Origin: Bacteroidota bacterium
Lineage (GTDB): Bacteria; Bacteroidota; Bacteroidia; Flavobacteriales_F; PHOS-HE28
Assembly (NCBI GenBank): GCA_014584605.1
Contig: JACTMO010000053.1
Span: 25,792 to 89,791 of the forward strand
Reading direction: 5' to 3'
DNA: 64,000 bases
The stretch's first letter is position 1. Each line of letters opens with the position of its first letter. Positions 19,403 to 56,143 of this stretch are shown in pieces. The notes beneath the pieces were generated by a model that was given only the letters and a program-made list of their open reading frames with translations, was not told the origin of the DNA and did not search any database. The position numbers were made by a program, and so were the translations under genes.

Positions 19403-21279
19403 CGGCCCATGTAAACGAGCAGGACGCTGATATCGGCGGGAGAGACTCCGCTGATCCGGCTGGCCTGTCCCAGAGTGGTGGGCCTGACCCGGTCCAGCTT
19501 CTGCCGCGCCTCGATGCTCAGCGAACTGAGTTTGTTGTAATCCAGGTCCACATCGAGGGGAACGTGCTCCAGTCGGCTGAGGCGTGAGGCCAAGTCGCGT
19601 TCACGCTCCAGATAGCCCTCGTACTTCACCTGGATCTCCACTTGTTCGATGGCCTCCTCGGCCAGATCTCCTGCCTGGTTGCGCCATTCGGAACGCTGTT
19701 CGAACAGGGGCTCCAGGTCGGCGAAGGTGAGCTGGGGTCGGGCGAGCAGGTCGAACAGGCGTGTGCGTTGTTTCACCGCCGTGGTTCCACGTGGAACGAT
19801 CACGGCGTTGGCGTCTTCCGCCGCAGGGCTTTCGGCCTTGAGCCCGGCCACCAAGGCCTTGCTGAGCCGCTGTTTGTGTTCCACCCGCCGCATGCGCGCG
19901 TCGTCGGCCAGGCCGAGCGCGTGGCTCCGGGGGGTGAGCCGCAGGTCGGCATTGTCCTGGCGCAGCAGGATGCGGAACTCGGCCCGGCTGGTGAACATGC
20001 GGTAGGGTTCCTCGGTGCCCTTGGTGATCAGATCGTCCACCAGCACGCCGATGTAGGCCTCATCCCGGCCCAGCACAAAGGGGTCCGTTCCCCGCACCTT
20101 CAAGTGTGCATTGATGCCCGCCATCAAACCCTGGCAGGCGGCCTCTTCGTAGCCGGTGGTGCCGTTGATCTGCCCGGCGAAGTAGAGCCCGTCCACCAGT
20201 TTGGTCTCCAGGCTGTGCCGCAGCTGGGTGGGGGGAAAATAGTCGTATTCCACGGCATACCCGGGTCGGAACATCCGTGCGTGGGCAAAGCCCGGGATCT
20301 TGCGCAAAGCGGCCAGCTGCACCTCTTCGGGCAGGCTGGTGCTGAAACCGTTGATGTAGGTCTCCACCGTATCCCAGCCCTCCGGCTCCACGAAGATCTG
20401 GTGTCGGTCCTTGTCGGCGAAGCGGTCGATCTTGTCCTCGATGCTCGGGCAATAGCGGGGGCCGATGCCCTGGATACGCCCGTTGAACATGGGGCTCCGG
20501 TCGAAGCCCGTGCGCAGGATGTCGTGCACCTCGGGGCTGGTGTAGGTCATCCAGCAGCTCAACTGCCGCTCCAGCGGTCGGGTGGCGGTGGAGTAGCTGA
20601 ACTTGCCCGGTCGCTCATCCCCGGGCTGTTCCTCCATGGCCCGGTGGTCGATGCTTCGGCCGTCCACCCGGGGGGGGGTGCCGGTCTTCATCCGCCCCGC
20701 CTCGAAGCCCAGCCCCACCAACTGCTCGGTGATGCCGTGGCTGGCCTTCTCGCCGGCGCGTCCACCCCCGATCTGGCGCTCACCGATGTGCATCACCCCG
20801 TTCATGAAGGTGCCGCTGGTGAGCACCACGGCCCGGCAGGGGATCCGCATGCCCAGCCCGGTGACCACACCCGCCACACGACCAGCCTCCAGGAGTATCC
20901 GGGTCACCGTATCCTGCCAGAAATGGACGTTGGGGGTTTGCTCCAGCAGGCGGCGCCATTCGGCCGCGAAGCGGTTGCGGTCGTTCTGGGTGCGGGGGCT
21001 CCACATGGCGGGGCCCTTGCTGCGGTTCAGCATGCGGAACTGCACGGCGCTGCGGTCGCTGACGATGCCGCTGTAGCCTCCCAGCGCATCGATCTCCCGC
21101 ACGATCTGCCCCTTGGCCACACCGCCCATGGCGGGGTTGCAGCTCATCTGCCCGATCACCCCCATGTTCATGGTCACCAGCAACACGCGCGAGCCCAGGT
21201 TGGCCGCTGCGGCAGCGGCCTCACAGCCGGCGTGCCCGCCACCCACCACCACCACGTCGTAGCCTTCGGTCCAGCTCAC
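19399..21279 (-). CDS. mnmG: tRNA uridine-5-carboxymethylaminomethyl modification enzyme MnmG (GidA)
   Basis: 626 aa. FAD-binding motif ([16 protein letters not shown]). Conserved MnmG motifs ([26 protein letters not shown]). Apparent GTG start. Confidence 0.95.
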
Positions 21280-25878: not shown

Positions 25879-26111
25879 GTGGAGCTAACGATGTGAACAC
25901 AGGAATTGGGATAGGCACCGGAGTGGGGAGGCATGTTTGGATACGTCTCAAAACCGGCCCCCCTCAGGTATGCCAGGAACGTCAATGGTGTAACACGTTC
26001 GGCCCCTGTTCTAACGCGAGCGCATACGATCACATCCCTTCGTGCTGCTGCGAAACTGTCGCGGCTGAATGTGATCACCTCAGTACTTGGCACGGGATAC
26101 ACGTTTGGTAA
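25875..26111 (+). CDS. Small Cys-rich ORF overlapping the Rhs stop (candidate immunity or orphan protein)
   Basis: 78 aa (…CQERQWCNTFGPCSNASAYDHIPSCCCETVAAECDHL…). ATGA overlap with the Rhs stop. Lies in the local low-GC (~50%) island at 25880-26170. Confidence 0.25.
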   Translation: MSGANDVNTGIGIGTGVGRHVWIRLKTGPPQVCQERQWCNTFGPCSNASAYDHIPSCCCETVAAECDHLSTWHGIHVW

Positions 26112-31499: not shown

Positions 31500-33197
31500 A
31501 TGCGTGCAAAGGGTGTGAGCTTGCTGTTGCCTCTGGTCGTAGCGGTACTGCATGCCACGGCCCAGGACCTCGCCACGCTGGGCCAGCAGGATAACTTCCG
31601 CCTGAGCGCGGGTCTGCAGGCGCAGTTCACGTTCTACCAGGCGCACGGCATCGATCCGCGGCGCACGCCCTGGTCCTGGTCGCTCAGCGGCACGCCCACG
31701 GCCACCATCGCCGGGGTGGACCTGCCCTTCCTGCTGGTGATCGGCGACCAGCAGCGCTCGTTCCAGCAGCCCTTCAACCAGTTCGGCATCAGCCCCAAAT
31801 ACAAATGGGCCAAGCTGCACCTGGGCTATCAGGACGTCAGCTTCTCCAAGTTCACCATGGCGGGCTATCGCGCGCTGATGGCCGGCGTGGAGCTGAACCC
31901 GGGGAAGTTCCGCTTCGGCTTCCTCTACGGCCGCTTCCAGAAGGCCGTGGAAGAGGACACCACCGCGGTGTACGACCCCTCGAAGTTCATCAGCGACGTG
32001 CCCGTGGCGGCCTATGAGCGCAAGGGCTTCGCGGTGAAGGTGGGCGTGGGCACCGAGGAGGAGCACGTGGACCTGGTGCTGCTGCGCGCCAAGGACGACC
32101 CGCGCTCCATCCGGCGGCCGGTGCGTACCGCCCTGGCCCCTGCGGGGAACCTGGTGGCCGGGCTGAAGGGCCGGGTGAAGCTGGCCAAGGCCCTGCATTG
32201 GGACTTCGATGTGGCGGCCAGCGAGTACGTGCGTGACGTGGAGGCCCCGGCGCTCACCGGCGATGCCGGGCCCATCACCACGGCCTTGTCCGGCATTTTG
32301 GGGCCGAACACCAGCAGCCAGAGCCTGATGGCCTTGGAGACCGGCCTGCAGCTGAAGCGCAAGCGCGCCCGCTACAAACTCACCTACCGCAGGGTGGACC
32401 CCGACTTCAAGAGCATGGGTGCCTACTACCTGCAGACCGATGTGGAGCAGGTGACCGGCACGGTGACGGCCACCCTGCTCAAGGGCAGGCTCAGCACCAA
32501 CCTCACCGCGGGCTGGCAGCACAACAACCTGAAGAAGCTGCGGGAGTCCACGGCACGGCGCATCATCGGCAACCTGAGCCTGAACTATACCGCCAAGAAG
32601 GTCTTCGGCTGCCTGGTGAACTACACCAACTTCGGCATCACACAGACGCCGGAACGCCGCAGCGTGAACGATACCACCCTGCTGGAGCAGGTGAGCCAGA
32701 ACCTGCTGGTGCAGCCGCGTGCCCGCTTCGCCGCAGCCAATGGCGGCCACATGGCCACATACACGTTCAACTATTTCGCGCTCAGCGACCGCAGTGAGAA
32801 CGCCTTCAGCAGCGCCCAGCTCACCGGCTTCCACAACGACCTGGCCTACACGCGCAACTGGAAGCGGGCACAGGCCATGCTCGGCGGCGGGTTGATCTGG
32901 CGCCGTACGGAGAACTTCATCGGGCGCATGGAAAGCCGGGGCGTACATGCCGAGGCCGGCCGCGCCTGGCTGAAGAAGGACCGCCTGCGCACCGAGCTGC
33001 GCACCAGCTTTCTGGCCAACACGCTGCCCGCCGGTGGCGACGGCAGTACCTGGCAGCTGGACCTGCGCGCCACCTGGCAACTGGACAAGCTCGCCATCTC
33101 GCTCACCGTGGGCCATCAGGAAAACCGGAGCCGTGATGCCACCGTGCCCTCCTTCACCGAGGACCTGGGGCAGCTCGGCGTCAATTACCGCTTCTGA
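31500..33197 (+). CDS. Predicted outer-membrane beta-barrel protein (uncharacterised family)
   Basis: ~565 aa. Signal peptide (MRAKGVSLLLPLVVAVLHATAQD). Alternating amphipathic beta-strand pattern throughout. C-terminal aromatic residue (…LGVNYRF). Its stop lies 2 bp before the start of the giant gene. Confidence 0.6.
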   Translation: MRAKGVSLLLPLVVAVLHATAQDLATLGQQDNFRLSAGLQAQFTFYQAHGIDPRRTPWSWSLSGTPTATIAGVDLPFLLVIGDQQRSFQQPFNQFGISPKYKWAKLHLGYQDVSFSKFTMAGYRALMAGVELNPGKFRFGFLYGRFQKAVEEDTTAVYDPSKFISDVPVAAYERKGFAVKVGVGTEEEHVDLVLLRAKDDPRSIRRPVRTALAPAGNLVAGLKGRVKLAKALHWDFDVAASEYVRDVEAPALTGDAGPITTALSGILGPNTSSQSLMALETGLQLKRKRARYKLTYRRVDPDFKSMGAYYLQTDVEQVTGTVTATLLKGRLSTNLTAGWQHNNLKKLRESTARRIIGNLSLNYTAKKVFGCLVNYTNFGITQTPERRSVNDTTLLEQVSQNLLVQPRARFAAANGGHMATYTFNYFALSDRSENAFSSAQLTGFHNDLAYTRNWKRAQAMLGGGLIWRRTENFIGRMESRGVHAEAGRAWLKKDRLRTELRTSFLANTLPAGGDGSTWQLDLRATWQLDKLAISLTVGHQENRSRDATVPSFTEDLGQLGVNYRF

Positions 33198-33199
33198 CC

Positions 33200-36100
33200 A
33201 TGAGACACAGGATCCCCTCCTTGATCGCCACGGCCCTGGTCACTGCCGCTGCCATTGCACAGGCGCAGGTCTCGGTGATGCCCGTGATCACGCCGCCCTA
33301 CAGCACCCACCTCAGCGACTACCAGGGCGCGCTGATCGTGAACCTCACCAACACCACCAACGAGCAGGTGGCCTTGAAGCTGATCGGCACCCTCACCGGC
33401 GACAACGGTTGCAGCGGCCACACACGCAGCACCTACGCGCCCCCGGCACCGGTGGTGCTGGGCCCGCTGGAGACCCGCGTGCTGCAGGCCAATTCACAGG
33501 CGCTGGACTTCATCGACCGCAACAACTTCGAGGTCAACGCGCCGCAGCAGGTGCAGAACGCCGTGATCCAGACGGGCATCCTGCCGGAGGGTAATTACGA
33601 GCTCTGCGTGCAGGCCGTGGACTACCAGACGGGCGAGCCCTTGTCCGCCGAGGCGCCCGCGGGCTGTCTCTTCTTCCTCATCACCTACGCCCAGCCGCCG
33701 GTGCTCACCTTCCCCTGGTGCGACGGCACCGTGGGCGATCCCTGGCCGGTGTTCACCTGGAGCCCGCCGGTGGGTGCCATCAACATGGCCAACGTGCGCT
33801 ACGACCTCTACGTGCTGGAGGTGCTGCCTGGGCAGAACCCCGCGAACGCGATGATGCTGGCCATGGACGGCGTGGCCGGCAACCCCATGGTGCGCACGGA
33901 CCTGATGGTGCCTTCCTATCCGTGGCAGCCCTACGATCCACCCTTGAAGGAGAACACCCTCTATGCCGTGGGCGTGGTGGCTCGCGACGTGACGGAAAGC
34001 GTCCTCTTCGAGAACCGGGGGCGGAGCGAGGTGTGCACCTTCACCATCCAACCGCCGACCCCGACCACCGGCACGGGCGCCCCCGTTACCGATCAGGGCA
34101 TCAGCACGGTTGTCCCGGCGATCACCTTGCCCATCGGGCCGTTGCCGGATACCCATGTGAAGGGGCGATTGCTGTACCGCTTCAAGGAAAGCACGCGCCC
34201 GGGCTGTGATCCGGCGGGGCCGCTTTCGATCGCCCACATGGACGGCGTCGTCCTTTCACCGGTGAATGCAACGGGCCTGGTCGGCCTTTCCCCATCCGGC
34301 GGTACTGCGCCATCCGGCGGTACCAACGCGGCCATCACCGGGCCGTTGATCAACACCCTGGGTGCGGGTCCGGCCAGTGGCACCTTTACCATCGGCGGGT
34401 TCATGGACGCCTTCAACCAATCCGGTGGCTCCATCGGTTACAGCATGGGCGAGAGCATGAATGCGCCGGCCGGTTTGGAATTGGCCAGCTTGTTTCCGGA
34501 GGAGAAGTGGAAGGACCCCTTCCCGGTGAGCACCACCGGTGCGAAGCCGCTGAAGAACATCCCCATCAAACTGGTGGAACGCGTGGTGCTCACCGGAGTG
34601 ACCGTGTACCAGGGCAAAGGCCAGCAGACGCAATATGACCGCTTGATCCTCGGTGTGGATTCCCTGCCTTTCATAGGGGGTGCGCTCACCGGCCAGCAGG
34701 GCGAGGCGGTGGAATGGCACTACGGCAAGGTGGTGGCCACGGGAACCACCGACGGCAACGGTCATTTCGACCTCTTCTACCACCAGCCCAGCTACACGGG
34801 CATCTTCCTGGGCAGCTCATCGGCGGGGATCAACAGCCTGATCATCGACCCCATCAGCCAGGAGCCGATCATGATGGGCGCCATCGATGCCTATAACAGC
34901 TCCAAGGTGCTGATGATCGAGGTGGCCTCGCCCTACTACTGCAGCCCCGACCTGGAGATCTATGCCCAGCCCGGCGATGTGGTGGACCTGCCCGAACAGG
35001 CATGCTATGTGCGCAGCTACGACCTGAAGGTGAGCGTGCGCCAGGGCGATTGCGCCATGCAGATGGGCGGCACCGGGTCGCCGATGGGGAACGTGCAGGT
35101 GAGCGTGATGCGCCCTGCGGACCATGCCTCCGAGGAGATCCCGGATGACGAGGGCCAACATCTGGACCAAAGCATGCCGATGCCGGGCCTGGGCGATGTG
35201 CCGCTGATCGCCCGCTGCGCCACCAAGTCCGGCGACGGCAGCGCGCTCTTCCACAACATGGTGGTGCACAGTAACGCCGCTCCCGACGATTATCTGCTGG
35301 ACTGCCGCACCAGCACCGAACGCGGGCTTTACCACTACCTGTCGTGGAACAAGGCCTGGCCCAACTGGTACGGCCAGCCGCCCGTGGTGCTCCACGGCGC
35401 ACGCAGCCCGCTGAACAGCCAGCTGGGCGACATCCCCGTGTACGAGGTGCCCGTGGACCTGGTGCCGCTGCAGCCCCGCGTGATGGGCCGCGTGATGGTC
35501 TCCGCCACCGAGCCGCTGCCCAATGCCAAGGTCACCCTGAAGCTGGCCTATGATGAGGCACCGGGCAACGTGTCCCCGGTGATCGTGGGCTGCGACCAGA
35601 ACACCGGGGCCGCCGACTTCACCTACCTGGAGTACACGCGGCTCACCGATCCGAACGGCTTCTTCGATTTCACCGGCATCCTGGTGAAGGGCTCGGAAGA
35701 CGGCATGTTCTTCCTGGGCCCTCACGCCAGCATCATCGTGAGCAAGCCGGGCTATTGGCCTGCCGTGCGGCCCTTGGCCGGTGAACCACCCGGCGTGCCA
35801 CCCGGGCAGGTGAACAACAGCAACCCCGCAAGCCCCAAGGTGGACCTGAAGATGGGCCTGCAGTGGGACATGACCAGCGGCATCCTGATGAAGCCCGTGG
35901 GCTGGGTGAAGGGCCTGATCCAGGATGAGGAAGGCGAACCGGTGCGTTGCGACGTGCAGGTGGGTGACGGGCCGTGGGGCCGTTCGGAACTGATGATCGA
36001 AGTGGTGGGCAGCGCAAGCAGTGGTCAGTCGCAATCGGGTGGAAATACGAGCACACCGCAGATCCAGATGGGGGACCCGATCATCCCTTGGTTCTTCCAG

Positions 36101-39100
36101 GTTCCCGGTGCGGGCGGCGGCGGGCAGACCGTGCAACAGGGGGCACCACTGGGGCAAGCCCAGGTACTGCCACCCGCCCCGCCGGTCCAGATCGGCTCCA
36201 TCATGACCTACAAGGCCACGGAGCAGTTCATGGTGCATGGCCCTTCCGGCATGCAGCAGGTGAAGCTGGTGCCGCTCAGCGACCAGTATTTCCCGCTCAC
36301 CGTGACGCGCAACGTGCCGTTCCCGGTGGGTGATCAACCCGTGGACCTCGGCGCGTTCACCGTGAAGGAGAAGCGCCACCGCCTCCGCGTGAAGCTCATT
36401 TCGCCATTGGGGCCCGTGGCCGGTGCGGTGGTGCGCGTGGATGACCGCCAACAGGTATCCGGCAGCGACGGCATCGCCTACTTCGAGTTCCTCTCCGCCG
36501 CCTCCGAATTCCGCTTGCGCGTGCAGCCGTCCGGAAGCCTGATCCCGGTGGACCGCATCATCGTGAATGAGGTGTCGCCCGAACCCGTGACGCTGGAGCA
36601 GTACGTGGAAAGCGGCACCCAGCTCATCGGTCATGTGGTGTCCATTCCCGGCAACGTGCCGGTGCCCGGTGCGCGGGTGTGGGTGGAGACCGGCAGCGAT
36701 CAATACGGCCCGCAGATCAACCAGACCACTTCCGATGCCGAGGGCAACTTCACGCTGTCCGGCGTGCCCATGGGGCCGATCACGGTGAATGCCGCCAAGT
36801 CGGACCCCCAGGATAGCTACATCGGCACATCGCAGCAAGTCACCTACATGATGGTGCCCGGCCTGCCACCGGACTTCGGCATGGTGCCCAAGATGCCCGA
36901 GGTGACGCTGGAGATGCAACGCGTGGACGACCTGGACCTCACCACCCTGCTCGGCTTCCCGGTGGAGGTGACCGCACGGACCAAGAACAACGACGGCAGC
37001 TCCACCATCAGCGGGGCCTTCGTCAACCTGCCGGCCAACCCCAACTTCCGCCTGTACGATCCCGCGCAGCGCATCCTCTTCAGCGCCATCATCGTGGACC
37101 CCGGCCCGCCCGGCCCCGGCGGCAAGCCGCGCGCCGTGCCCCGCGACGGAAAGGTGGTGACGGACATGGCGCAGGTACCGCTCGGGCTTTACACCGACCT
37201 GCGGGCCAGCCTGAAGGGCCTGCCCTTCTCCTTCTTCCCGGGGCGCGTGGAAGTGCATGGCACACCCGGCGGTGGCGAGGTGCGCGGCACGGTGAGCAGC
37301 GAGCTCTCCTCCTTCAACTTCTCCTACGACTTCACCGGCCGCTTCTACCTGGGCGATGGCGCGGAGCAACCCTTGATCACCGCCTTCCGCAACGGCGCAC
37401 CGCTGCCCCAGCGCACCTACAACCTGATGACGCTGGCCTACGGCGGCGGCATGTTCGGCACCTGGCAGCCGTCGGACGCGCAGTTCTCCCTCCGCGGCTT
37501 CCCCGCCCGCAGCGACCGCACGCGCTCGGTGGTGGAGCCCGACGTGTTCCGCATCGCCACGGTGATCCAGGTGAAGGATGTGCCCGACATCACCCCGGCC
37601 GTGCTGGACCTGGACGTGGGCGAGATCCGCGTGAACGCCACCACCATCGAGGGCATCCAGGGCGGCGGCAGCACGCTCAACTTCAAGCTCAACGACTGGA
37701 GCTTCAGCGCCACCAGCCCGTGGACCTTCAACAACGAACTGGCCGCCATCGTGATCCCCAGCGGCGTGCTGGACATGAAGCTGGCCAAGGCCGACATGAG
37801 CCAGGTGATGATCCGCCCCAATGCGCTGGAGATGGCCGCGAAGAACCTGGGCGAGGTGCGACTCGGCGGCGTGGCCCCGCTGCAGCCCGCACCGGGCACG
37901 GCGTGGACCTTCGGCTATGATCCCGGCTACATCTTCCAGGGCAAGGCCGGTGCCTGGCGCTTCGGCGCGCTCACCGCCGGGTCCGCTTCGGTGGCCACCA
38001 TCCAGGGCCCGCCGCAACTGGTGCCCGCACAGGTGGAACTCTCCAGCTTCTCGCTCTTCAGCCGCGGCATGCCCCTGGCCGAGGTGCGCGCTCGCAGCTA
38101 CCGCTACCAGGACATCGTGGACCTGGTGCCCGTGGGCGCCATGCAGTTCACGCCCGATGGCGTGGACCTGCTGGCCAACTGCTCGCTGGCCATCCACGGG
38201 CTGCCGCAGACCACCGGCTTCTTCAGCTTCTACAAGGAGAACGGCCAGCCCACCAGCCGCCTGAAGCCGCTCGGCGGCACCATCACCACCGGGCGCGGCA
38301 ACGTGTACTTCAAGCTGGACGACCGCATGGCCTCGCAGGAGATCACGCCCGGCCGTTTCACCTGCTACGGCCGCTTCCGCATCGACCCGGGCAATGGCGA
38401 AACCGGCGATCCCGTGTACGCCTACGGCTTCCTGGACCACAAGGCGAGCAACACCTTCATCGACCTGATCCGCGTGGACGCGCAGAACTACAAGGGATCC
38501 ACGCGCCAGGCCATCGCCTTCGGCAGCGACAAGAAGATGCTGCTCAACAGCGGAAGGCAGACCATGGGCAGCAGCCAATGGGACGAGCTTTCCTTCAAGG
38601 GCAACCTGGTGAACATGGAAGGCATCGCCGATGCGCCCGCGAACGAACTCTCCTTCACGGTGAAGGGCGCCGTGAGCCTGCAGGACGGCAAGATCGGCAT
38701 GGACCAGCTGGCCACGCCCTTCGGCAACATGGCCATGAGCTACGATTTCGAGCATGCACGCCTGGTGGGCAGCCTGGACCTGCACAACAACAACTTCGGC
38801 GCGGTGAACATCGTGGATGCGCAGCTCGGCCTGCTGGTGGACAAGGGCGGCTTCCTGGTGAGCTGCTACGATGCGCACGTGATCGTGCCGCCAGTGCCCT
38901 GGCCCCTGCAGGACCACCATCCGGCTTTCCTGATCGGTGCGCACAACAGCATCCCGGACACCCTGCTCGGCAACATGATGGCGAACTTCCGCCTGAAGAG
39001 CCTGCCCGCGCACATGGCCGGCAAGAAGATCCAGGGCCTGTACCTGCAGGATAAACTGAGCCTCGTGGACCTGTCCGTGCCGAGTGTGGACCTGCTGCTG

Positions 39101-39442
39101 TTGGGCGTGGAGGGCCACGCCAGTTGCGCGGTGGAAGGCCGCAATTGGGTGGACCTCAGCGGAAGCATCGGCTTCGGGGGCATGGCCTACGCCGATGCGG
39201 GCCTCAACTTCTGGCTGCTGAGCCCGATCCCCAACTGCGGCAGCCTGGACATCTCGACCAGTGCCTCGGCGCTGTTCGAGGCCTCCCTCCAGAACGGCAG
39301 CTTCGCGCTGGATGCCTGCGGCTCCACCGGCGCCAGCGCCTCCATCTGCGGCGTGGGCGACAGCTACACCTTCACCGTGAAGGCCGGTGTGGGAAGCGGC
39401 GGTTTCACCTTGCAACGGATCGATGGGTCCTGCGGACAATGA
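33200..39442 (+). CDS. Giant (2080-aa) secreted multi-domain protein with repeated carboxypeptidase-regulatory-like / transthyretin-like beta-sandwich domains
   Basis: Signal peptide (MRHRIPSLIATALVTAAAIAQAQ). At least four CarboxypepD_reg-like modules, e.g. VMGRVMVSATEPLPNAKVTLKL, LRVKLISPLGPVAGAVVRVDD...SGSDGIAYFEF, LIGHVVSIPGNVPVPGARVWVETG...TTSDAEGNFTLSGVPMGPITV. Gly/Pro-rich linkers. Beta-rich C-terminal ~700 aa. Confidence 0.7.
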   Translation: MRHRIPSLIATALVTAAAIAQAQVSVMPVITPPYSTHLSDYQGALIVNLTNTTNEQVALKLIGTLTGDNGCSGHTRSTYAPPAPVVLGPLETRVLQANSQALDFIDRNNFEVNAPQQVQNAVIQTGILPEGNYELCVQAVDYQTGEPLSAEAPAGCLFFLITYAQPPVLTFPWCDGTVGDPWPVFTWSPPVGAINMANVRYDLYVLEVLPGQNPANAMMLAMDGVAGNPMVRTDLMVPSYPWQPYDPPLKENTLYAVGVVARDVTESVLFENRGRSEVCTFTIQPPTPTTGTGAPVTDQGISTVVPAITLPIGPLPDTHVKGRLLYRFKESTRPGCDPAGPLSIAHMDGVVLSPVNATGLVGLSPSGGTAPSGGTNAAITGPLINTLGAGPASGTFTIGGFMDAFNQSGGSIGYSMGESMNAPAGLELASLFPEEKWKDPFPVSTTGAKPLKNIPIKLVERVVLTGVTVYQGKGQQTQYDRLILGVDSLPFIGGALTGQQGEAVEWHYGKVVATGTTDGNGHFDLFYHQPSYTGIFLGSSSAGINSLIIDPISQEPIMMGAIDAYNSSKVLMIEVASPYYCSPDLEIYAQPGDVVDLPEQACYVRSYDLKVSVRQGDCAMQMGGTGSPMGNVQVSVMRPADHASEEIPDDEGQHLDQSMPMPGLGDVPLIARCATKSGDGSALFHNMVVHSNAAPDDYLLDCRTSTERGLYHYLSWNKAWPNWYGQPPVVLHGARSPLNSQLGDIPVYEVPVDLVPLQPRVMGRVMVSATEPLPNAKVTLKLAYDEAPGNVSPVIVGCDQNTGAADFTYLEYTRLTDPNGFFDFTGILVKGSEDGMFFLGPHASIIVSKPGYWPAVRPLAGEPPGVPPGQVNNSNPASPKVDLKMGLQWDMTSGILMKPVGWVKGLIQDEEGEPVRCDVQVGDGPWGRSELMIEVVGSASSGQSQSGGNTSTPQIQMGDPIIPWFFQVPGAGGGGQTVQQGAPLGQAQVLPPAPPVQIGSIMTYKATEQFMVHGPSGMQQVKLVPLSDQYFPLTVTRNVPFPVGDQPVDLGAFTVKEKRHRLRVKLISPLGPVAGAVVRVDDRQQVSGSDGIAYFEFLSAASEFRLRVQPSGSLIPVDRIIVNEVSPEPVTLEQYVESGTQLIGHVVSIPGNVPVPGARVWVETGSDQYGPQINQTTSDAEGNFTLSGVPMGPITVNAAKSDPQDSYIGTSQQVTYMMVPGLPPDFGMVPKMPEVTLEMQRVDDLDLTTLLGFPVEVTARTKNNDGSSTISGAFVNLPANPNFRLYDPAQRILFSAIIVDPGPPGPGGKPRAVPRDGKVVTDMAQVPLGLYTDLRASLKGLPFSFFPGRVEVHGTPGGGEVRGTVSSELSSFNFSYDFTGRFYLGDGAEQPLITAFRNGAPLPQRTYNLMTLAYGGGMFGTWQPSDAQFSLRGFPARSDRTRSVVEPDVFRIATVIQVKDVPDITPAVLDLDVGEIRVNATTIEGIQGGGSTLNFKLNDWSFSATSPWTFNNELAAIVIPSGVLDMKLAKADMSQVMIRPNALEMAAKNLGEVRLGGVAPLQPAPGTAWTFGYDPGYIFQGKAGAWRFGALTAGSASVATIQGPPQLVPAQVELSSFSLFSRGMPLAEVRARSYRYQDIVDLVPVGAMQFTPDGVDLLANCSLAIHGLPQTTGFFSFYKENGQPTSRLKPLGGTITTGRGNVYFKLDDRMASQEITPGRFTCYGRFRIDPGNGETGDPVYAYGFLDHKASNTFIDLIRVDAQNYKGSTRQAIAFGSDKKMLLNSGRQTMGSSQWDELSFKGNLVNMEGIADAPANELSFTVKGAVSLQDGKIGMDQLATPFGNMAMSYDFEHARLVGSLDLHNNNFGAVNIVDAQLGLLVDKGGFLVSCYDAHVIVPPVPWPLQDHHPAFLIGAHNSIPDTLLGNMMANFRLKSLPAHMAGKKIQGLYLQDKLSLVDLSVPSVDLLLLGVEGHASCAVEGRNWVDLSGSIGFGGMAYADAGLNFWLLSPIPNCGSLDISTSASALFEASLQNGSFALDACGSTGASASICGVGDSYTFTVKAGVGSGGFTLQRIDGSCGQ

Positions 39443-41734: not shown

Positions 41735-41892
41735 GTCGCGCCATCGGCAATGACGGATCCTGATCCGCCAGAAGCGCGCTACCCGATCCCTTTTCCGGGG
41801 ACCGTCCTTGGCCGCTCCGGCACCTGCCGCCGCATGCGCGGCTTCCTGTTCCCCGCTTCGCGGTGAGACCTCCCATCCTGCTGGAAAGCAAG

Positions 41893-41918
41893 CAGGGCCG
41901 CCGGGAACGGCGGCCCTG
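41893..41918 (-). terminator. Putative intrinsic terminator hairpin downstream of the OMP gene
   Basis: Perfect 11-bp stem CAGGGCCGCCG-GGAA-CGGCGGCCCTG, 48 bp downstream of the 41966..42958 gene. On the minus strand it is followed by a short T-containing tract (TGCTTGCTTTCC). Confidence 0.3.
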
Positions 41919-41965
41919 CACGGGCGGTCGCGGACGTATCCCCTCGTCGCGGTGCCCGCGTTCCT

Positions 41966-42958
41966 TCAGAAGCTCACCAGGGTGAGTCCCGCGTTCACCG
42001 GTACCAGTTCGGGCCCGCGGTCCTTGCGGAAGAGCGGCGTGAGGGCGTATTCGGCGAAGAGGTTGAGGCCCGCCCAGCCCACCTGGACCCTGGCGGCCAG
42101 GCGGTGGTCCAGCAGCTGGAAGGAACCCTTGCTGCGCTCCTTCTCCACCGCGCCGTCCTGGCGGTACTTCACCTTGTACATGGTATCGAAGTACCAGCTG
42201 CCCACCAGGCCGAAGGCCAGATGGAAGTTGTTCTTGCGGGAGAAGCCGTGGTCCTTCCAGCTCCCGCTGCGCAGCGCCTCCTCGGTGGGCAGGGGCGAGC
42301 GCCTGGTGTTGAACTCCAGCATCAGGGGCACGCGCAATCCGATCTGGCGCAGTTTGTTCTTCCGCAGGTCCGGGTCCACCACCACCTGCCCGAACACCGA
42401 GTCGGCATCGTACGCCAGGCGCACGTTGTTGCTGAGCCGGTAGTTCACGAACTCCAGGCCCACGCCGGTGAACAGGCCCGCGTGGTGGCTCCCGAACTCC
42501 ACCTTGTACGCGGCGGCATTGATGGCGAAGAACCGCGAATTGGCGTCCTCCAGCTGCAGGAAGCGGGCCTTGTCCGGCAGGTCGAAACCGCCGTCGGGGT
42601 TCATGTAGTTATTGAGGCCGATCTCCACCCCGGTCCAGTAGGTGAAGGCGTTGCGGCGCGAGCGCCGCAGTTCGCGCAGCCGTTTGGCGGCCGCCACGCC
42701 CGTGGTGTCCAGCACCTTGTTCGCCGAGAGGATGGTGATGATCTTGCGCCTGGTCTGGAAGGTGATGGTGTCGGGCCGGTCCTCGCTGGCTGTGTCGTCC
42801 TTGCCCTTCACCCCGGCGTACGGCCCCCGCTCGCTGTCCACCCCGATCTCCAGGCGGTTGCGGTGGGTGCCGGTGCTGTCGTCCTGTGCCCGCAGTGCCG
42901 ACCGGTGCAGCAGGAGGGAGGCCACCGCGAGGGTGGCGAAGGCTGTCGCGTTGCGCAT
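41966..42958 (-). CDS. Outer-membrane beta-barrel protein (OmpA-like barrel / porin-type family)
   Basis: 330 aa. Signal peptide (MRNATAFATLAVASLLLHRSALRAQ). Amphipathic beta-strands. C-terminal …AGLTLVSF. Confidence 0.65.
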   Translation of the reverse strand: MRNATAFATLAVASLLLHRSALRAQDDSTGTHRNRLEIGVDSERGPYAGVKGKDDTASEDRPDTITFQTRRKIITILSANKVLDTTGVAAAKRLRELRRSRRNAFTYWTGVEIGLNNYMNPDGGFDLPDKARFLQLEDANSRFFAINAAAYKVEFGSHHAGLFTGVGLEFVNYRLSNNVRLAYDADSVFGQVVVDPDLRKNKLRQIGLRVPLMLEFNTRRSPLPTEEALRSGSWKDHGFSRKNNFHLAFGLVGSWYFDTMYKVKYRQDGAVEKERSKGSFQLLDHRLAARVQVGWAGLNLFAEYALTPLFRKDRGPELVPVNAGLTLVSF

Positions 42959-43115
42959 GATCTTGCTGTGCGGCGGCGGCCTGGTGGCCGCCTGCAGACA
43001 TAGGACGGGTCACCGGGCCCGTTGTTACAGCGCCGCAAGGAATAGGGTGTGGAAAGGGCGAAGGGGCCGCCCCTTTCAAGACGACCCCTTCGCTGCGGGC
43101 GTACAAAGCGCGGCG

Positions 43116-43490
43116 TCAGACCTTCTCGGGACGGAAGACGAAGCGGACCCGGGTGGTGCGCCAGATGCCGTCCAGGTTATCGCCCACATCCACCTTGGCC
43201 AGCTTTTCCAGCACGTACTGGCGCAGGGCCTCGTTGGTGGACCAGGAGTCCAGGACCACGATCCGGCCCTCGCTGTTGACCACGAAGCTGGCGGTGACCT
43301 CGCCGGTCATGTCGTGCGTGCGCTCCAGGACGGGGAACACCATGTGGCGGTTCAGCTGGCGCTCCAGGGCGCGCTCCAGGGTGGTGGTGTTGTCATGCGC
43401 GGTGCGCAGGGGTTCGGCGGCGCGGGTGTACCCGTAGGTGAACACGGTGGCGAGCAGCAGGAGGCTCTTCTTGAGGGTGGCGGCGTTCAT
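43116..43490 (-). CDS. TonB C-terminal-domain-like (energy transducer TonB family) small secreted protein
   Basis: ~124 aa from internal M97. Signal peptide (MNAATLKKSLLLLATVF). TonB_C-like fold signature (VFPVLE...GEVTASFVVNSEGRIVVL...RFVFRP). Confidence 0.55.
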   Translation of the reverse strand: MNAATLKKSLLLLATVFTYGYTRAAEPLRTAHDNTTTLERALERQLNRHMVFPVLERTHDMTGEVTASFVVNSEGRIVVLDSWSTNEALRQYVLEKLAKVDVGDNLDGIWRTTRVRFVFRPEKV

Positions 43491-43608
43491 GGCGGTGGTG
43501 TTTGTCTGTGCCCATGGGACGGGCCCCGGCCGTCCGCTGTTACAGTTTGACGGGCATCCTGTGATGAGCGGAAGCGGTGCCGGGATGAGCGGCGTGGACC
43601 CGGGCCGA

Positions 43609-44937
43609 TCAATGACCCCGGTTGGCCGATACGGCGAGGCCGGCGCCCAGGCGCAGGTCGAAGCGGGTGATGCGCCTGCCCCGGCGCTGTACCGCAAGGC
43701 CGGCCGCCTCCCCGCCGATCCGCCGGAGGCCCTTGTCCACCACGGCCAGGGCATCGCCCTCATCCAAGGGGCGGGCATCGGCCCCGGGCTGGTCGAGCAC
43801 CTTGTTCCGCAGGCGCTGGGCGATCAGCCCGCCCAGGGTGGGCGGCGCGGCCGCGGTGGCAACGGCCAGGAACTCGTCGGGCGTGGGCACCGAGGCTGCA
43901 AGCGGCGCCGGGTCCACGGGGATGGGGTTCTGTGCCCTGGTTCCGATGGGGTGGTGCCGCAGAGGCTCCATGTGTGCCAGCAGGGTGCGCTCCCGTGCGT
44001 CCTCCGTGGTTCCGGCGGGATCGCGCAACGTTCGCTCGTTCGTTCGATGGTCCCCGTGCGTTGTTGCGGACCGTTGGGGCGGGTCCTGCGGACCGCCGGG
44101 GAGCGCTGCGGGACGCTGGGCCGATCCACCGGTCGGGGCTGGAGCTCGCTGTTCCGGCCGTTGCGGGGCGGCGGGTGCTTCCCGGAGCTCCGCCAGGCCT
44201 GCGCGGTCGGGGTCAGGACGGTCCAGGAGCGCCCACAGGCCGAGGCCCAGCAAGAGGGCTGCGGCTGCGGCGTAGCGGTAAAAGGCCGGGCGGTGGAAGA
44301 GCGGAAGCACCCGGCCCCGGCCCCGGTACAGCGCGTCCCTTGCCGGGAAGCGCACGGCCTCGGGGCGCAGGCGTGTGGCGGCCACGAGCCTGCGTTCGCG
44401 TTCCGCTTCAGGGTGTGCGGCAAGGAAGGCCTGGAGGGCGGCGCGGCCCCCGGCATCGAGCGTTCCTTCCAGTTCGGCGATCAGGAAGTCGGTGAGCCGG
44501 TGGCGGTCCACGGCGCCGGTGGGTGGGAAGGTGCGCCGCAGGGTCTCGCGGGTCGGCATGGGTTCCGGCGGCGGCGTCAGGCGGGCCAGCGCCATCAGGC
44601 GGGCATCGTTCCGGGCTTCGGGGTGCTGGTCCAGGTATTCGGCGAGCGCGCGCTGCTGTTGCGGGTCCAGGTCGCCCTCGCCAAGGGCCACCAGGAAGTC
44701 CGGCAGGGTGGTCGGGGTGGGCAGGCCCTGCGGGGGCAGGGTCCGCTTCAGGGAGGCCTTGTCGTCAAAGCCCGGGTCTTCGGCACGGAGCATCGGCGGG
44801 TCGCCGTGCGGGACCTCGGCCGCCAGGTCGGGGTTGGCGCGCAGGAAATCGTCGAGCTCCCGCAGTTGTGCGGGGCTGAGCGTGCCTTCCATGCGGTCCA
44901 GCAGCCAGGCTTCGTAGGTGGTGCGGTCCAGTTTCAC
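43609..44937 (-). CDS. Putative membrane-anchored anti-sigma factor with triplicated N-terminal helical motif and Pro/Ala-rich extracytoplasmic region
   Basis: 442 aa. Three tandem ~40-aa repeats (…EGTLSPAQLRELDDFLRANPDLAAE / EGDLDPQQQRALAEYLDQHPEARND / EGTLDAGGRAALQAFLAAHPEAERE). Single TM helix (FYRYAAAAALLLGLGLWALL). Start overlaps the sigma-factor stop (ATGA). Confidence 0.6.
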   Translation of the reverse strand: MKLDRTTYEAWLLDRMEGTLSPAQLRELDDFLRANPDLAAEVPHGDPPMLRAEDPGFDDKASLKRTLPPQGLPTPTTLPDFLVALGEGDLDPQQQRALAEYLDQHPEARNDARLMALARLTPPPEPMPTRETLRRTFPPTGAVDRHRLTDFLIAELEGTLDAGGRAALQAFLAAHPEAERERRLVAATRLRPEAVRFPARDALYRGRGRVLPLFHRPAFYRYAAAAALLLGLGLWALLDRPDPDRAGLAELREAPAAPQRPEQRAPAPTGGSAQRPAALPGGPQDPPQRSATTHGDHRTNERTLRDPAGTTEDARERTLLAHMEPLRHHPIGTRAQNPIPVDPAPLAASVPTPDEFLAVATAAAPPTLGGLIAQRLRNKVLDQPGADARPLDEGDALAVVDKGLRRIGGEAAGLAVQRRGRRITRFDLRLGAGLAVSANRGH

Positions 44938-45462
44938 AGCACGAGCTCCAGTTGTCCGATGTGATCCTTCAGTGCGGTGCGCCCCCGGTAAATGTAGACC
45001 TTGACCTGTGCGAGGTTCAGCCCGGTGAGCTGGGCGATCTCCTCATAGCTGTAGCCTTCCAGGTCGCGCAGGAGCACCACGCTGCGTTGGACCTGGGGAA
45101 GCCGGGCAAGCCCGGTCTCCAGCACCTTCTGCAGGTCGGGTTCCGACTGGACGCTCCAGCGCAGGTCCTCGTGGTGTTCCTCGAGGCGCGTGCTGCGCCC
45201 CCCCTTTGCGCGCCTCGTCCACCAGCAGATGGTGCGCGGTGGTGAACAGGTAGCTCTTGCTCTTGGCGGCCTCCACCTCGTCCACCCTGGCCCACAGCCG
45301 GGCGAAGCTCTCCTGCACGACATCCTTGGCCACGTCCGCATCGCGCAGATGTTTCAAGGCGAAGCGAAAGAGCCCGTCGGCATGGGCATCCACGGCGCTG
45401 TTGTATTCGTCGGCGGTCACGAAGGTGGTGGTCGTCGCTGCTGATGGGACGTTCGGGTGCAA
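44934..45462 (-). pseudogene. ECF (sigma-70 family) RNA polymerase sigma factor, interrupted by a +1 frameshift in a G7 homopolymer
   Basis: N-terminal sigma region 2 lies in the 45043..45462 frame (…FRFALKHLRDADVAKDVVQESFARLWARV…HLLVDEARKGG). C-terminal region 4 lies in the 44934..45341 frame (…RSTRLEE…VVLLRDLEGYSYEEIAQLTGLNLAQVKVYIYRGRTAL). The frames join perfectly if the G7 run (C7 on the plus strand, 45198-45204) is shortened to G6. Confidence 0.7.
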
Positions 45463-45571
45463 GGAAAGTTACAGGCTCCGGTGGGTGCGCGGGATGCCCG
45501 GCACCCGCCCAAGCTTGTTGACCGCCCCTGCCCGGATCCAGTAAATTGCCCACCCTCAGACCCCGCACCCC

Positions 45572-47773
45572 TTGAAAACCGCGACGCACGCCCTTTCGTT
45601 CCTCATGACCGGCCTTGTGGCCGGCGCTCTCCAGGCCCAGTCCTTCACGCGGAACACCACCCCGCTCACCAACGAGAGCGCCCGCTCGGGCGGCTGTGTG
45701 GGGATCACCGACATGGACGGCGACGGGCTGGACGACCTGATCCTGCTCCACCAATCGGAGAACCTGTACATCGATTACCAGAACCCGGACGGCAGTTTCA
45801 CCTCGTTTTCCTACGGATCGGTGAGCTCCAGCGACCAGTGGGGCATGGCCGTGGGCGACGTGGACAACGACGGGCACAAGGACTTCGTAAGCGGTGGCAA
45901 CGGCGATGGGGTTCACTTCGTGGAGATCAGCGGACGTGGCGTGTACACGCCGGTCACCAACCTGAACAACGGTTCCATGTTCATGCAGTGCATGAACATG
46001 GCCGACATCAACAACGACAGCTGGCTGGACGTGTTCGGCTGTGGCGACACCGGCCCGAACAAGATCTGGCTGAACAACGGCAGCGGTTCCTTGAGCTACA
46101 ACAACTACATCAATTTTGCCACCACGCCGGCCACCGACATGAGCGGCAACTACGGCAGCACATGGACCGATTTCGACAACGACGGGGACATCGACCTGTA
46201 CATCACCAAGTGCCGACAGGGGGTGAACAGCCCCACCGACCCGCGCCGCTGGAACCGCCTGTTCGTGAACGACGGCAGCAACAACTACAGCGACCTGGCC
46301 GACACCTATGGGGTACAGAACCAGGAGCAGTCCTGGTCCAGCGACTTCGCCGACATCGACAACGACGGCGACCTGGACCTGATCACCTCCAACCACAGCA
46401 CCACGATCCAGTTGTTCCTGAACGACGGCACGGGGCATTACACCAACGCCACCAGCGGCAGCGGGCTGGAATACACCTCCTTCTTCCTACAGACCAAGTG
46501 CGAGGACCTGGACAACGACGGGTTCGTGGACCTGATCACGTCCGGCGGGGAGTATTACTTCCACGGCAACGGCGACGGCACCTTCACCCGCATCCTGAAC
46601 ATGCTGCCCGAGCCCGGGAGCTACACGCTGCACACCTTCGCCCTGGGCGACATGAACCACGACGGGTTCATCGACGTGTATGCCGGCTACGGCAGCAGCT
46701 ACGTGACGCCCAGCAGCAGCCGCGACGATGAGCTCTACCTGAACAACGGCAATGCGAACCACTTCCTGAACTTCCAGCTGACCGGGCAGGAGAGCAATCG
46801 GGATGCGGTGGGCGCTCGCGTCACCCTGTACGGCCCGTGGGGCATCCAGATCCGCGAGGTGCGGGCCGGGGAGAGCTACGGCATCGTCTGCTCCTCCACC
46901 TGCCATTTCGGGCTGGGGGGTGCCGTGGAAGCCGACAGCGCGGTGGTGCGCTGGCCCAGCGGCACGGTGGACAGGCTGTACAACGTGGCCGCGGACCAAT
47001 GGGTGGCGCTGGAAGAAGGCCAGACCACGCGCGGCGTGGTGGCCATCAAGGCCATGCTGGGCGGGCCGTACGACCAGGGCTCGGGCCTGATGACCGATGG
47101 CCTGCGCAACCTGGGCCTGCTGCCGCTCACCGAACCGTACACGGGACTTGGCCGCACCATCACCGGTCCGCCTGCGCTGCGCATCATCCCCGCGTCGGTG
47201 CTGGCCACCACGGGGGCCAACGCCATCGTGGACTGGGTGTGGGCCGAGCTGCGCGACCCGTCCACTCCGGGCGTGGTGCTGGCCGCCAAACCCGCCTTGG
47301 TGCAGCGCGACGGCGATGTGGTGGGCCTGGACGGGGAGCTCCCCGTGGCCATGGGTCTGGCTGACGGTAATTACCACGTGGCGCTGCGCCACCGCAACCA
47401 CCTGGGCGTGATGACCGGCGCGGCGCTCGCCCTGAGCGGAACGCCCACCGCGCTCGACCTCACGTTGCCCGCCACGCCCACCTGGGGCACGGCCGCGCGC
47501 AAGGATGTGAACGGCACCGCGGTGCTGTGGGACGGGAACGCCCGGGCCACGGACGGGGTGGTGAAGTACGCCGGAGGCAGCAACGACCGCGACCCCATCC
47601 TGGTGGCCATCGGCGGGGCGGTGCCCACGGCCACCACCACCGGCTACTTGCTGGAGGACGTGAACATGAACGGCGCCGTGAAGTACGCCGGTGGCGGCAA
47701 CGACCGCGACCGCATCCTGGTGAACATCGGCGGCTCGGTGCCCACCGGCACACGCACCGAACAGTTGCCCTGA
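45572..47773 (+). CDS. FG-GAP/VCBS-repeat protein with ASPIC/UnbV domain (CRTAC1-like), secreted
   Basis: 733 aa. Signal peptide. Repeated FG-GAP-like motifs (DMDGDGLDDLIL, DVDNDGHKDFV, DFDNDGDIDLY, DIDNDGDLDLI, DLDNDGFVDLI). ASPIC/UnbV domain (RDAVGARVTLYGPWGIQIREVRAGESYG...GLGGAVEADSAVVRWPSG). Confidence 0.85.
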   Translation: MKTATHALSFLMTGLVAGALQAQSFTRNTTPLTNESARSGGCVGITDMDGDGLDDLILLHQSENLYIDYQNPDGSFTSFSYGSVSSSDQWGMAVGDVDNDGHKDFVSGGNGDGVHFVEISGRGVYTPVTNLNNGSMFMQCMNMADINNDSWLDVFGCGDTGPNKIWLNNGSGSLSYNNYINFATTPATDMSGNYGSTWTDFDNDGDIDLYITKCRQGVNSPTDPRRWNRLFVNDGSNNYSDLADTYGVQNQEQSWSSDFADIDNDGDLDLITSNHSTTIQLFLNDGTGHYTNATSGSGLEYTSFFLQTKCEDLDNDGFVDLITSGGEYYFHGNGDGTFTRILNMLPEPGSYTLHTFALGDMNHDGFIDVYAGYGSSYVTPSSSRDDELYLNNGNANHFLNFQLTGQESNRDAVGARVTLYGPWGIQIREVRAGESYGIVCSSTCHFGLGGAVEADSAVVRWPSGTVDRLYNVAADQWVALEEGQTTRGVVAIKAMLGGPYDQGSGLMTDGLRNLGLLPLTEPYTGLGRTITGPPALRIIPASVLATTGANAIVDWVWAELRDPSTPGVVLAAKPALVQRDGDVVGLDGELPVAMGLADGNYHVALRHRNHLGVMTGAALALSGTPTALDLTLPATPTWGTAARKDVNGTAVLWDGNARATDGVVKYAGGSNDRDPILVAIGGAVPTATTTGYLLEDVNMNGAVKYAGGGNDRDRILVNIGGSVPTGTRTEQLP

Positions 47774-47914: not shown

Positions 47915-49702
<1,788 letters not shown>

Positions 49703-49962
49703 GGCCGGGTCCGGAAAAGGCGTGCAAAGGTAGCCCTTGGCCTGCTGGCCGCCCTGCGATCCGGATGACGGCGCAAATGGCACCTTCGAGCATCCACCTC
49801 CTTCCCCGTGCGCATGCATCGCCATCATGGGATCCCGGCCGCCGACGGGAAGCGGGGAACGCGGTTCACATGAAAGTGGTATTGCCCGCCGCAGCGCTTC
49901 CGGCGGAGCTTTGTACACCCGCCCGGAATTGCGGCGAGGACCACCATCCACCGACCCATACC

Positions 49963-52808: not shown

Positions 52809-53888
52809 ATGAGAACATTCTTCCTTCTGGCCCTTGCGCTCGTTACCAGCATGATGGCGAACGCCCAAGGCGTGATCACGCGCCAGTTGAACGGGCAATC
52901 CTTCTTCTACTATGCCGGAGAGCTGCAACAGGTCTTCGACGATGCCGAGCAGTCCGCTGGCCAGGATACGGTGATCCTTGCGGGCGGTCAGTACATGACG
53001 GCCACCGACCTCTTTATCCGGACGCCGATCGTGCTCATGGGCAGTGGGGTGTACCCGGACAGTGTGACGGCCTACGGCGGGCGGACAACGATATCCGGCA
53101 GTGGATTCAGGTACCTGCGCATCATGGAGGATGCAGATGGCACGCAACTCCACGGGATCGCCTTCATGGGAAGCATTGGTGTGACGATCGGAACCTCGCT
53201 GAGCACATCCGATGCAGATGGTGTTGTGGTGTCCCGTTGTGAACTTGAAGTGCTGTACCTGGGCTCCGGCTCATACGGGTCCAATGCGAACGACCCCTTG
53301 GTTGAACAGTGCATCATCACCAACCTGGACTTGAATGAATGCACCGATCCCACGATCCGCAATTGTGTGATCGGCAGCATGGATGGGGGGATACCGACCA
53401 CCGACGCGCGGGTCGAGCAATGCATGTTCTTCAACTTTGCGCTGAACAGCAACACAGGCAACGAGTACACCAACTGCATCTTCATCCGCAATCAATCGAA
53501 CGCCTTTGTGGCCAACGAAACGGGCGCCATCTTCCGCAACAACCTTTTCGTGGGCCAGAGCGGATTCTCCTTCAGTATCGGTCCAAATGCCACGGACGGA
53601 GGCGGCAATGTGAGCGACAGCCCGATCAACACCGTGAACGGCGCATTTCCGCAGCTAACGTCCACCAGCTACACCGTCTTTGCTCATGGGGACAACTACA
53701 CGCCGGCCGTGCAATGGTTGACCGCCGGTCTGGGCGGCACCCAGGTGGGGATCCATGGTGGTGCGCGACCCTGGAAGGATGGGCTGCTGCCGTTCAATCC
53801 GCATTGGATCCAGTTGATCGCACCGAGCACCACGGTGAACGGCACTTTGCAGGGGGTGCAGATCAAGGCCAGCGCACAGCAACCCTGA
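52809..53888 (+). CDS. Secreted protein with predicted right-handed parallel beta-helix repeats
   Basis: 359 aa. Signal peptide (MRTFFLLALALVTSMMANAQG). Repetitive N/G/I/V-rich ~22-aa periodicity (NC.I..N...) typical of pectin-lyase-fold proteins. Confidence 0.5.
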   Translation: MRTFFLLALALVTSMMANAQGVITRQLNGQSFFYYAGELQQVFDDAEQSAGQDTVILAGGQYMTATDLFIRTPIVLMGSGVYPDSVTAYGGRTTISGSGFRYLRIMEDADGTQLHGIAFMGSIGVTIGTSLSTSDADGVVVSRCELEVLYLGSGSYGSNANDPLVEQCIITNLDLNECTDPTIRNCVIGSMDGGIPTTDARVEQCMFFNFALNSNTGNEYTNCIFIRNQSNAFVANETGAIFRNNLFVGQSGFSFSIGPNATDGGGNVSDSPINTVNGAFPQLTSTSYTVFAHGDNYTPAVQWLTAGLGGTQVGIHGGARPWKDGLLPFNPHWIQLIAPSTTVNGTLQGVQIKASAQQP

Positions 53889-55180: not shown

Positions 55181-56143
55181 ATGAACCGATCGATCCTGCT
55201 GACACTGGGCGCCACCGTGGCCCTCAGCGCCAGCGCACAACGCAAGAAGACCCCCACGGTCTACACCCCGCTCACGGGGGTCAGTACCGAGGAGGTACTG
55301 CCCGTGGCCGCCTATATGATCAAGACCTATTACAAGGGCGACATCGACTACCTGGCCTGGGGCGATCGGCATTTGCGTTCGTACTGGATCAACTACTACT
55401 GGGGCCTCGGCACCCAATGCCACCTGAAGGCCAACTTCAAGGTGGATGCGTCCAACGGGTTGGAGATCATCATGGACCCCGTGGAGATGTACGACACGGA
55501 CAGCCACCGGTGGATCGGCGCCCGGGAGGACAAACGTGAGCTGAACATCAAGATCGAGATGGTGGAGCACATCCGGGCGCGGCTGGCCGTGCCGGACAGC
55601 GTGCAGAAGGCGAAGGACTGGTTCTACACGGATCTGCGGGTGAACGCCTGCTTCTTCGAGACGGCGACCGAGCTGGCCGGTCAGCGCTGGTTCGAGGCCT
55701 ACCTGCGCGACAAGGCCGTGCAATGGACCGTGCCCTTCGATGACGTGAAGGCCAACGCGGTGGAGGGGTACAAATACGCCGAGCATTACAGCGCGGACAT
55801 CTCCAATACCGCGCTGGACCCCAATGCCGATGTGGTGAAGCGCTTCCAGATCGTCAAGTACACCAACTCGGACAAGAACGTGATGAGCAGCAAGGGGTCC
55901 AACCTGAAGGTGTCGGGATACTTCCGCTCCTTGACCTTCTCGAACGACCAGTTCCTCATCACCATCACCGAGGCATTGAACGACCCGCTGCCCAAGACCT
56001 CGGCGCAGGCCACGGAGAGCAAGGGCGGCGGCGCACTGGAGAACGCCGACAAGCTGAAGAAGCTGAAGGAGTTGCTGGACGCGGGCATCCTGACGAAGGC
56101 CGAGTATGACGCCGAGAAGAAGAAGCTGCTCGGCCCCCCCTGA
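55181..56143 (+). CDS. Secreted hypothetical protein with C-terminal SHOCT domain
   Basis: ~320 aa. Signal peptide (MNRSILLTLGATVALSASAQ). C-terminal SHOCT motif (KLKELLDAGILTKAEYDAEKKKLL). Confidence 0.6.
   Translation: MNRSILLTLGATVALSASAQRKKTPTVYTPLTGVSTEEVLPVAAYMIKTYYKGDIDYLAWGDRHLRSYWINYYWGLGTQCHLKANFKVDASNGLEIIMDPVEMYDTDSHRWIGAREDKRELNIKIEMVEHIRARLAVPDSVQKAKDWFYTDLRVNACFFETATELAGQRWFEAYLRDKAVQWTVPFDDVKANAVEGYKYAEHYSADISNTALDPNADVVKRFQIVKYTNSDKNVMSSKGSNLKVSGYFRSLTFSNDQFLITITEALNDPLPKTSAQATESKGGGALENADKLKKLKELLDAGILTKAEYDAEKKKLLGPP

Follow-up and report, generated by a model that had tools for sequence, protein, structure and literature searches.

A conserved ECF sigma factor gene of an uncultured Flavobacteriales bacterium is split by a probable recent G6-to-G7 slippage

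An uncultured high-GC Flavobacteriales bacterium harbors a gene for an ECF sigma factor, a regulator of stress responses, that is split across two reading frames by a minus-strand run of seven Gs (plus-strand C7) at 45198-45204 of the window, the whole 64-kb stretch of DNA analysed here. The frameshift is real, a sequencing error is unlikely, and the G7 allele was assembled in every population sampled. The lesion probably arose by a recent, strain-specific slippage from G6 to G7 at the end of sigma region 2, leaving a young null allele, the nascent pseudogene of a conserved ECF sigma factor, that would be revertible in principle and bears no sign of selected or ongoing switching. A preliminary description of this DNA had offered a phase-variable switch, a pseudogene and a homopolymer sequencing error as explanations. 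A pseudogene fits best, but a very young one, in which the 3' half is free of decay and the operon is otherwise undamaged.

Reading of the sequence from 44300 to 46000 confirmed both the position of the +1 frameshift and the two frames given in the preliminary description. On the minus strand the site reads CGC AAA GGG GGG G CGC AGC. The 5' ORF (45462/45420 to 45043) encodes region 2 (…FRFALKHLRDADVAKDVVQESFARLW…HLLVDEARKGG), followed by 52 out-of-frame codons before the TGA at 45043-45045. Region 4 (…VVLLRDLEGYSYEEIAQLTGLNLAQVKVYIYRGRTAL…) lies in the +1 frame, in a second minus-strand ORF that ends at 44934. As had been proposed, removal of one G fuses the two into a single ORF. It is 161 aa long from the GTG at 45420 and contains both sigma Pfam domains. 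In the G7 allele the region 2 frame stops 106 nt short of the next gene, with region 4 left out of frame. No uninterrupted frame joins regions 2 and 4, and the ORF is disrupted relative to intact orthologues, as expected of a pseudogene. Gene callers annotate just a 63-aa piece of the 3' part, starting at a GTG at 45125. The sigma stop codon (TGA, 44934-44936) overlaps the GTG start (44937) of the following gene; the overlap described previously is therefore present, but as GTGA and not ATGA. The features of the locus are collected in Table 1.

Table 1. Coordinates of the split sigma factor gene and its cassette in the window.
Feature	Position	Strand	Remarks
ECF-type promoter motif TGTAACTTTC-N12-CGTC	45448..45473	-	28 nt upstream of start codon; intact
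Sigma gene, 5' reading frame	45043..45420	-	GTG start 45420; sigma region 2, residues 1-74; TGA 45043-45045
G7 homopolymer (AAA GGG GGG G)	45198..45204	-	bears +1 frameshift; G6 needed for in-frame gene
Sigma gene, 3' part, +1 frame	44934..45197	-	linker and region 4, residues 75-161 of repaired protein
442-aa gene, putative single-pass membrane anti-sigma factor	43609..44937	-	overlaps sigma stop; intact; position conserved in orthologous loci
124-aa secreted protein	43116..43490	-	intact; conserved in cassette
330-aa putative outer-membrane protein	41966..42958	-	signal peptide, C-terminal Phe; intact; last cassette gene, conserved
GC-rich 12-bp hairpin, probable operon terminator	41892..41919	-	47 nt past last gene

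Once repaired, the protein is a small two-domain ECF (group 4) sigma factor with regions 2 and 4 and without regions 1 and 3. It matches Pfam Sigma70_r2 (1.5e-11) and Sigma70_r4_2 (1.7e-16). The repaired 175-aa translation scores 44.3 bits for PF04542 (cut-off 24; residues 24-89), and the repaired translation scores 60.1 bits for PF08281 (cut-off 25.7). The NCBIfam model TIGR02937 (sigma70-ECF) is matched at 64.7 against a cut-off of 42.9, and residues 5-155 align to solved ECF sigma structures (SigE, SigW, SigL). The top named family is the Bacteroidota GFO_1088/PG0214 ECF sigma, NF058625 ('GFO_1088 family ECF-type sigma factor'; 3e-31, covering positions 3-163 of the 170 in the profile). The score of 108.4 bits lies below the curated cut-off of 130 for this equivalog, which makes the repaired protein a relative and not a certified member. 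A total of 1671 homologues were found. The top matches are 161-aa proteins from Flavobacteriales metagenome-assembled genomes, the orthologues share an equivalent start codon, the closest database proteins are 87-88% identical, and hundreds of intact 161-aa orthologues align end to end.

The interruption is confined to the lineage sampled by the window. Eighteen aligned orthologues with 75-88% identity have no gap at the shift site (…VDE[VA]RKG[GSKA]RSTRMEE…). The sigma gene is uninterrupted in all of the best 80 loci recovered from GTDB species genomes, a set that leaves out the window's own species and in which a split match may rank below the best 80. The site itself could be read in 33 orthologous loci (31 GTDB loci plus L088 and L089). 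The gene is intact in each, and the longest G run at the site is five, with two to three in most. Codons at this position include AAG GGA AGC, AAA GGC TCC, AAG GGC GGA, AAG GGG GCG and similar triplets, and the nearest relative (WBZY01000087.1) has AAG GGG AAG. The G tract is thus specific to this lineage, and the simplest history would be the gain of one G by an ancestral AAA GGG GGG CGC (K-G-G-R, G6).

These comparisons bear directly on the contingency locus suggested in the preliminary description, according to which intact orthologues lacking a homopolymer at the site would speak against the proposal. The 33 loci, intact and with no G run above five, are of this kind. In such a locus, the tract would flip between G6 (ON) and G7 (OFF) by replication slippage, bet-hedging the whole ECF regulon, and the window would have captured the OFF state. 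A seven-base G run within the coding sequence of a regulator, with the remaining gene and the operon undamaged, is compatible with this. A G7 inside an ORF is a hypermutable repeat, though a short one for a tract that can switch. The tract also consists of three minor codons, AAA accounting for 11% of Lys codons and GGG for 18% of Gly codons. However, the codon argument is circular, since frameshifts are visible only where a tract exists (an ascertainment effect). Maintenance of the tract, which would be expected of a contingency locus, was not observed in any of the 33 orthologous loci, the closest relative included. With these observations, a phase-variable regulator is an unsupported and unlikely explanation.

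Other tract lengths were not found either. The exact repaired proteins corresponding to G6 (161 aa) and G9 (162 aa) are absent from a collection of ~15 billion proteins, and JGI metagenome contigs gave no match to a gapped DNA pattern in which 5-9 bases separate the two exact flanks. A search for the locus in JGI data by means of the anti-sigma gene recovered relatives at 66% and 38% identity only. Polymorphism in tract length, another property of contingency loci, was therefore not detected at the contig level among the eight SRA-run assemblies described below, the protein collection and the JGI contigs.

The base call itself is well supported. Contigs from eight SRA runs (SRR30202054/55/57/58, SRR28758104/06 and SRR33126933/34), located by exact-protein look-ups with the neighbouring genes and the 63-aa region 4 fragment, all carry G7. 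Over 1.7-5.4 kb, every contig that was read matches the window with 100% identity and passes continuously through the tract, at a contig-level resolution that would conceal minority G6 or G8 subpopulations. The 63-aa fragment is also present on one 172-kb NCBI contig. Since the eight read sets are 100% identical, they probably stem from a single clonal population, and while the base call is confirmed by them, they carry little information on evolutionary stability. Logan contigs from different runs, eleven contigs in all, tend to share end points, at ~42605-42685 and ~48001-48023 and not at the G tract, and there may be strain variation or repeats at these positions.

The window also contains an internal control against homopolymer miscalls. 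Its longest run, nine bases at 20670-20678, is C on the sense strand and lies in frame within the minus-strand mnmG (19399-21279). It reads ACC CCC CCC CGG in a T-P-P-R stretch of an intact 626-aa ORF. The mnmG run would itself be a mutational hot spot. There are 25 runs of at least six bases in the window, and the G7 is the sole one at which a high-GC3 ORF changes frame. Of the others, 22 are within uninterrupted high-GC3 ORFs and two (25958-25963 and 53385-53390) are in none. No other homopolymer-linked frame break was found within the window. Overlapping ORFs in three places (13.3-15.3, 15.3-18.3 and 18.5-21.4 kb) were considered as split genes and proved to be separate intact genes. The sole other seven-base run is a C7 at 56134-56140 on the plus strand. 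It encodes the last two prolines (…LLGPP*) of an ORF ending at 56143, directly before the stop, and a ±1 change there would lengthen the protein and not truncate it.

Taken together, these data disfavour the sequencing error that the preliminary description had listed among its options, that is, a sequencing, polishing or assembly artefact in a genome that truly has G6 and an intact gene. Single-base homopolymer errors are the commonest artefact of long-read metagenome-assembled genomes, and the lesion is a single base in a run. Nevertheless, an artefact is very unlikely because eight separately assembled public read sets all have G7 with identical flanks and the longer mnmG run is in frame. 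In addition, no other run of at least six bases interrupts an ORF, and the exact intact protein has not been called from any assembly in the protein collection.

The assemblies and the G/C runs of the window also weigh against switching. All eight read sets assemble G7, with contigs that pass straight through the tract, and G/C runs of at least seven bases are depleted, not enriched, in the window. There are five hits at three loci compared to 39 expected from dinucleotide shuffles of this 66% GC sequence, a depletion of ~8-fold. Phase variation in Bacteroidota is mainly known from DNA inversions. Regulators elsewhere, including those encoded by Bordetella pertussis bvgS with its C-run and Campylobacter jejuni flgR/flgS, are switched off by ±1 homopolymer changes, and these switches operate in both directions and at high frequency in culture. 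In contrast, two-way switching of the window G tract was not seen at the contig level. The closest parallel in favour of a switch is the 7C tract of Mycobacterium tuberculosis glpK, which is likewise a seven-base G/C run in the coding sequence of a high-GC bacterium, in which ±1 slippage inactivates the gene and tracts switch reversibly (10.1101/717272; PMC10334774). The glpK tract, however, is conserved in the species and is found at mixed lengths within colonies and among thousands of isolates, with reversion demonstrated (10.1101/717272; PMC10334774), whereas the window tract is lineage-specific and is seen at one length. It is conceivable that a newly arisen, lineage-specific slippage switch toggles the ECF sigma factor and the envelope-protein operon ON (G6) and OFF (G7), but this is improbable. 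G7 is intrinsically mutable, so reversion by loss of one G would be possible, and the border between a recent slippage mutation and phase variation is not sharp.

The 3' half of the gene has not decayed. In comparisons with the two closest orthologues, the out-of-frame 3' part, read in its own frame, has a dN/dS of 0.11-0.12 and the 5' part 0.13-0.24, values that show absence of decay only and cannot separate a recent null allele from a gene that still functions. Comparisons with L011 and L021, where the orthologues are 162 aa and misaligned, were left out. The sigma gene has a single lesion, no relaxed dN/dS and none of the secondary decay typical of older pseudogenes. Compared with the divergence from the nearest sequenced relative (dS 0.3-0.6), the undecayed gene points to a very young mutation. 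The absence of decay means that the mutation is recent or that the gene is not yet drifting, and it fits equally a gene kept functional by some bypass.

Two further explanations can be envisaged. Programmed recoding, by +1 ribosomal frameshifting on GGG GGG G or by transcriptional loss of one G, would supply some full-length sigma factor from the G7 allele. The tRNA-Gly can re-pair perfectly in the +1 frame on G7, and the intact 3' frame would be accounted for. However, the shift site is conserved in no orthologue, all of which are single-frame and lack the tract. The next 0-frame codon, GCG, represents 26% of Ala codons, such that neither a stop nor a rare codon is available for pausing. Folding of the 106-nt stretch that starts at the tract is not stronger than that of shuffled sequence (z = -0.24). 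Transcriptional slippage is known mostly from A/T runs of at least nine bases. Recoding is therefore highly improbable. Alternatively, a 63-aa region 4 fragment with its own start (GTG 45125) could join the region 2 fragment on RNA polymerase as a two-piece sigma factor. Sigma factors with two subunits occur in nature, as with SigO-RsoA of Bacillus subtilis. The 63-aa ORF is indeed predicted by gene callers, and its GTGA overlap with the anti-sigma gene is kept. Yet nothing indicates a translation start at 45125, the region 2 fragment would bear 52 junk residues, and the split occurs in a single clonal lineage only, all relatives being fused. It would be very surprising if the two fragments functioned in this manner.

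The probable null allele is set within an otherwise intact cassette. The promoter motif upstream of the sigma gene occurs once in the 64-kb window, with 0.01 expected by chance. AAC…CGT is the form of ECF promoters, and among 25 upstream regions of orthologues, 22 contain an AAC-N15-18-CGT form. Most of the orthologous Flavobacteriales loci (L004-L028, L088 and L089) have the motif as TGTAACTTTC-N12/13-CGTC(C/A)(C/T)A, located 25-35 nt before the start codon. The motif in the window is presumably the autoregulated promoter of the sigma gene itself, as its form suggests.

The preliminary description of the neighbourhood as an anti-sigma gene, a TonB-C-like gene and an outer-membrane protein gene was broadly correct as to its layout, but the anti-sigma and TonB-C labels gained no significant support from profile searches. 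The 442-aa protein has three N-terminal copies of a helical motif followed by a hydrophobic segment, and it is full-length compared with its closest relative. It had no significant Pfam, NCBIfam or PDB sequence match (DUF4880, E=0.053), and its anti-sigma role is suggested by position only. The helical motifs are tandem, of ~40 residues each (YEAWLLDRMEGTLSPAQLRELDDFLRANPD…, LPDFLVALGEGDLDPQQQRALAEYLDQHPE…, LTDFLIAELEGTLDAGGRAALQAFLAAHPE…), and just the N-terminal ~215 residues are conserved in most orthologues. Searches with the 124-aa protein returned TonB_C at E=0.22 only, with no PDB sequence relative and no significant Pfam or NCBIfam match. The 330-aa protein had no Pfam, NCBIfam or PDB sequence match, and features of its sequence point to a role in the outer membrane.

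The order of the three downstream genes is kept across Flavobacteriales and partly in Bacteroidales, often beside lepA. The cassette directly adjoins lepA in eight distant Bacteroidota loci. In the window a divergent FG-GAP/ASPIC gene (45605-47773) lies between the cassette (41966-45420, minus strand) and lepA (47915-49720, minus strand), which suggests that the FG-GAP/ASPIC gene was inserted where the gene neighbourhood is otherwise conserved. Two ORFs of very large size and strong coding GC3, one at 33137-39442 on the plus strand (~2100 aa) and the other from 58351 past the window end at 64000 on the plus strand (>1880 aa), presumably encode giant surface proteins.

If the G7 allele is a null, its effects would likely extend to the whole cassette. 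A product without region 4 would be unable to read the -35 element, and self-activation from its own ECF-type promoter would be lost. Translational coupling to the putative anti-sigma gene would also be broken. As a result, the four-gene cassette, consisting of the genes for the sigma factor, the putative anti-sigma factor, the 124-aa protein and the outer-membrane-like protein, may stay at basal expression.

Related modules provide context for such a lesion. Porphyromonas gingivalis PG0214-PG0218 comprises an ECF sigma factor and four hypothetical proteins, and PG0214-18 go down together (PMC11018363). As in the window, a Bacteroidota sigma gene heads a cluster of uncharacterised envelope proteins, with co-regulation reported for PG0214-18. 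Unlike the window gene, the P. gingivalis sigma gene is intact; the window sigma factor falls below the NF058625 cut-off. In Pseudomonas aeruginosa, the mucA22 allele has lost one base from a G5 run in the gene for the anti-sigma factor of AlgU, an ECF sigma factor (PMC2781719). In both cases a short G run slips by a single base and an ECF sigma/anti-sigma module is rewired, as an ordinary adaptive or neutral mutation and without a dedicated switch. The mucA22 mutation strikes the anti-sigma gene and turns the regulon ON, whereas the lesion in the window strikes the sigma gene and should turn the regulon OFF.

Finally, the event is of an ordinary kind, a recent gene knockout, and it matters mainly to annotation and quality control: records should retain the frameshift and mark the gene as genuinely disrupted, without silent homopolymer 'correction'. 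If mixed tract lengths were true of this population, the locus would be a moderately interesting case of an ECF sigma factor switched by way of a repeat. The conserved motif TGTAACTTTC-N12/13-CGTC could serve in mapping the regulon that belongs to this sigma family. The G7 allele would represent a knockout, made by nature, of an ECF sigma cassette that is widely conserved in Bacteroidota, uncharacterised and related to P. gingivalis PG0214-0218, implying that the bacterium can do without the regulator in at least one environment.
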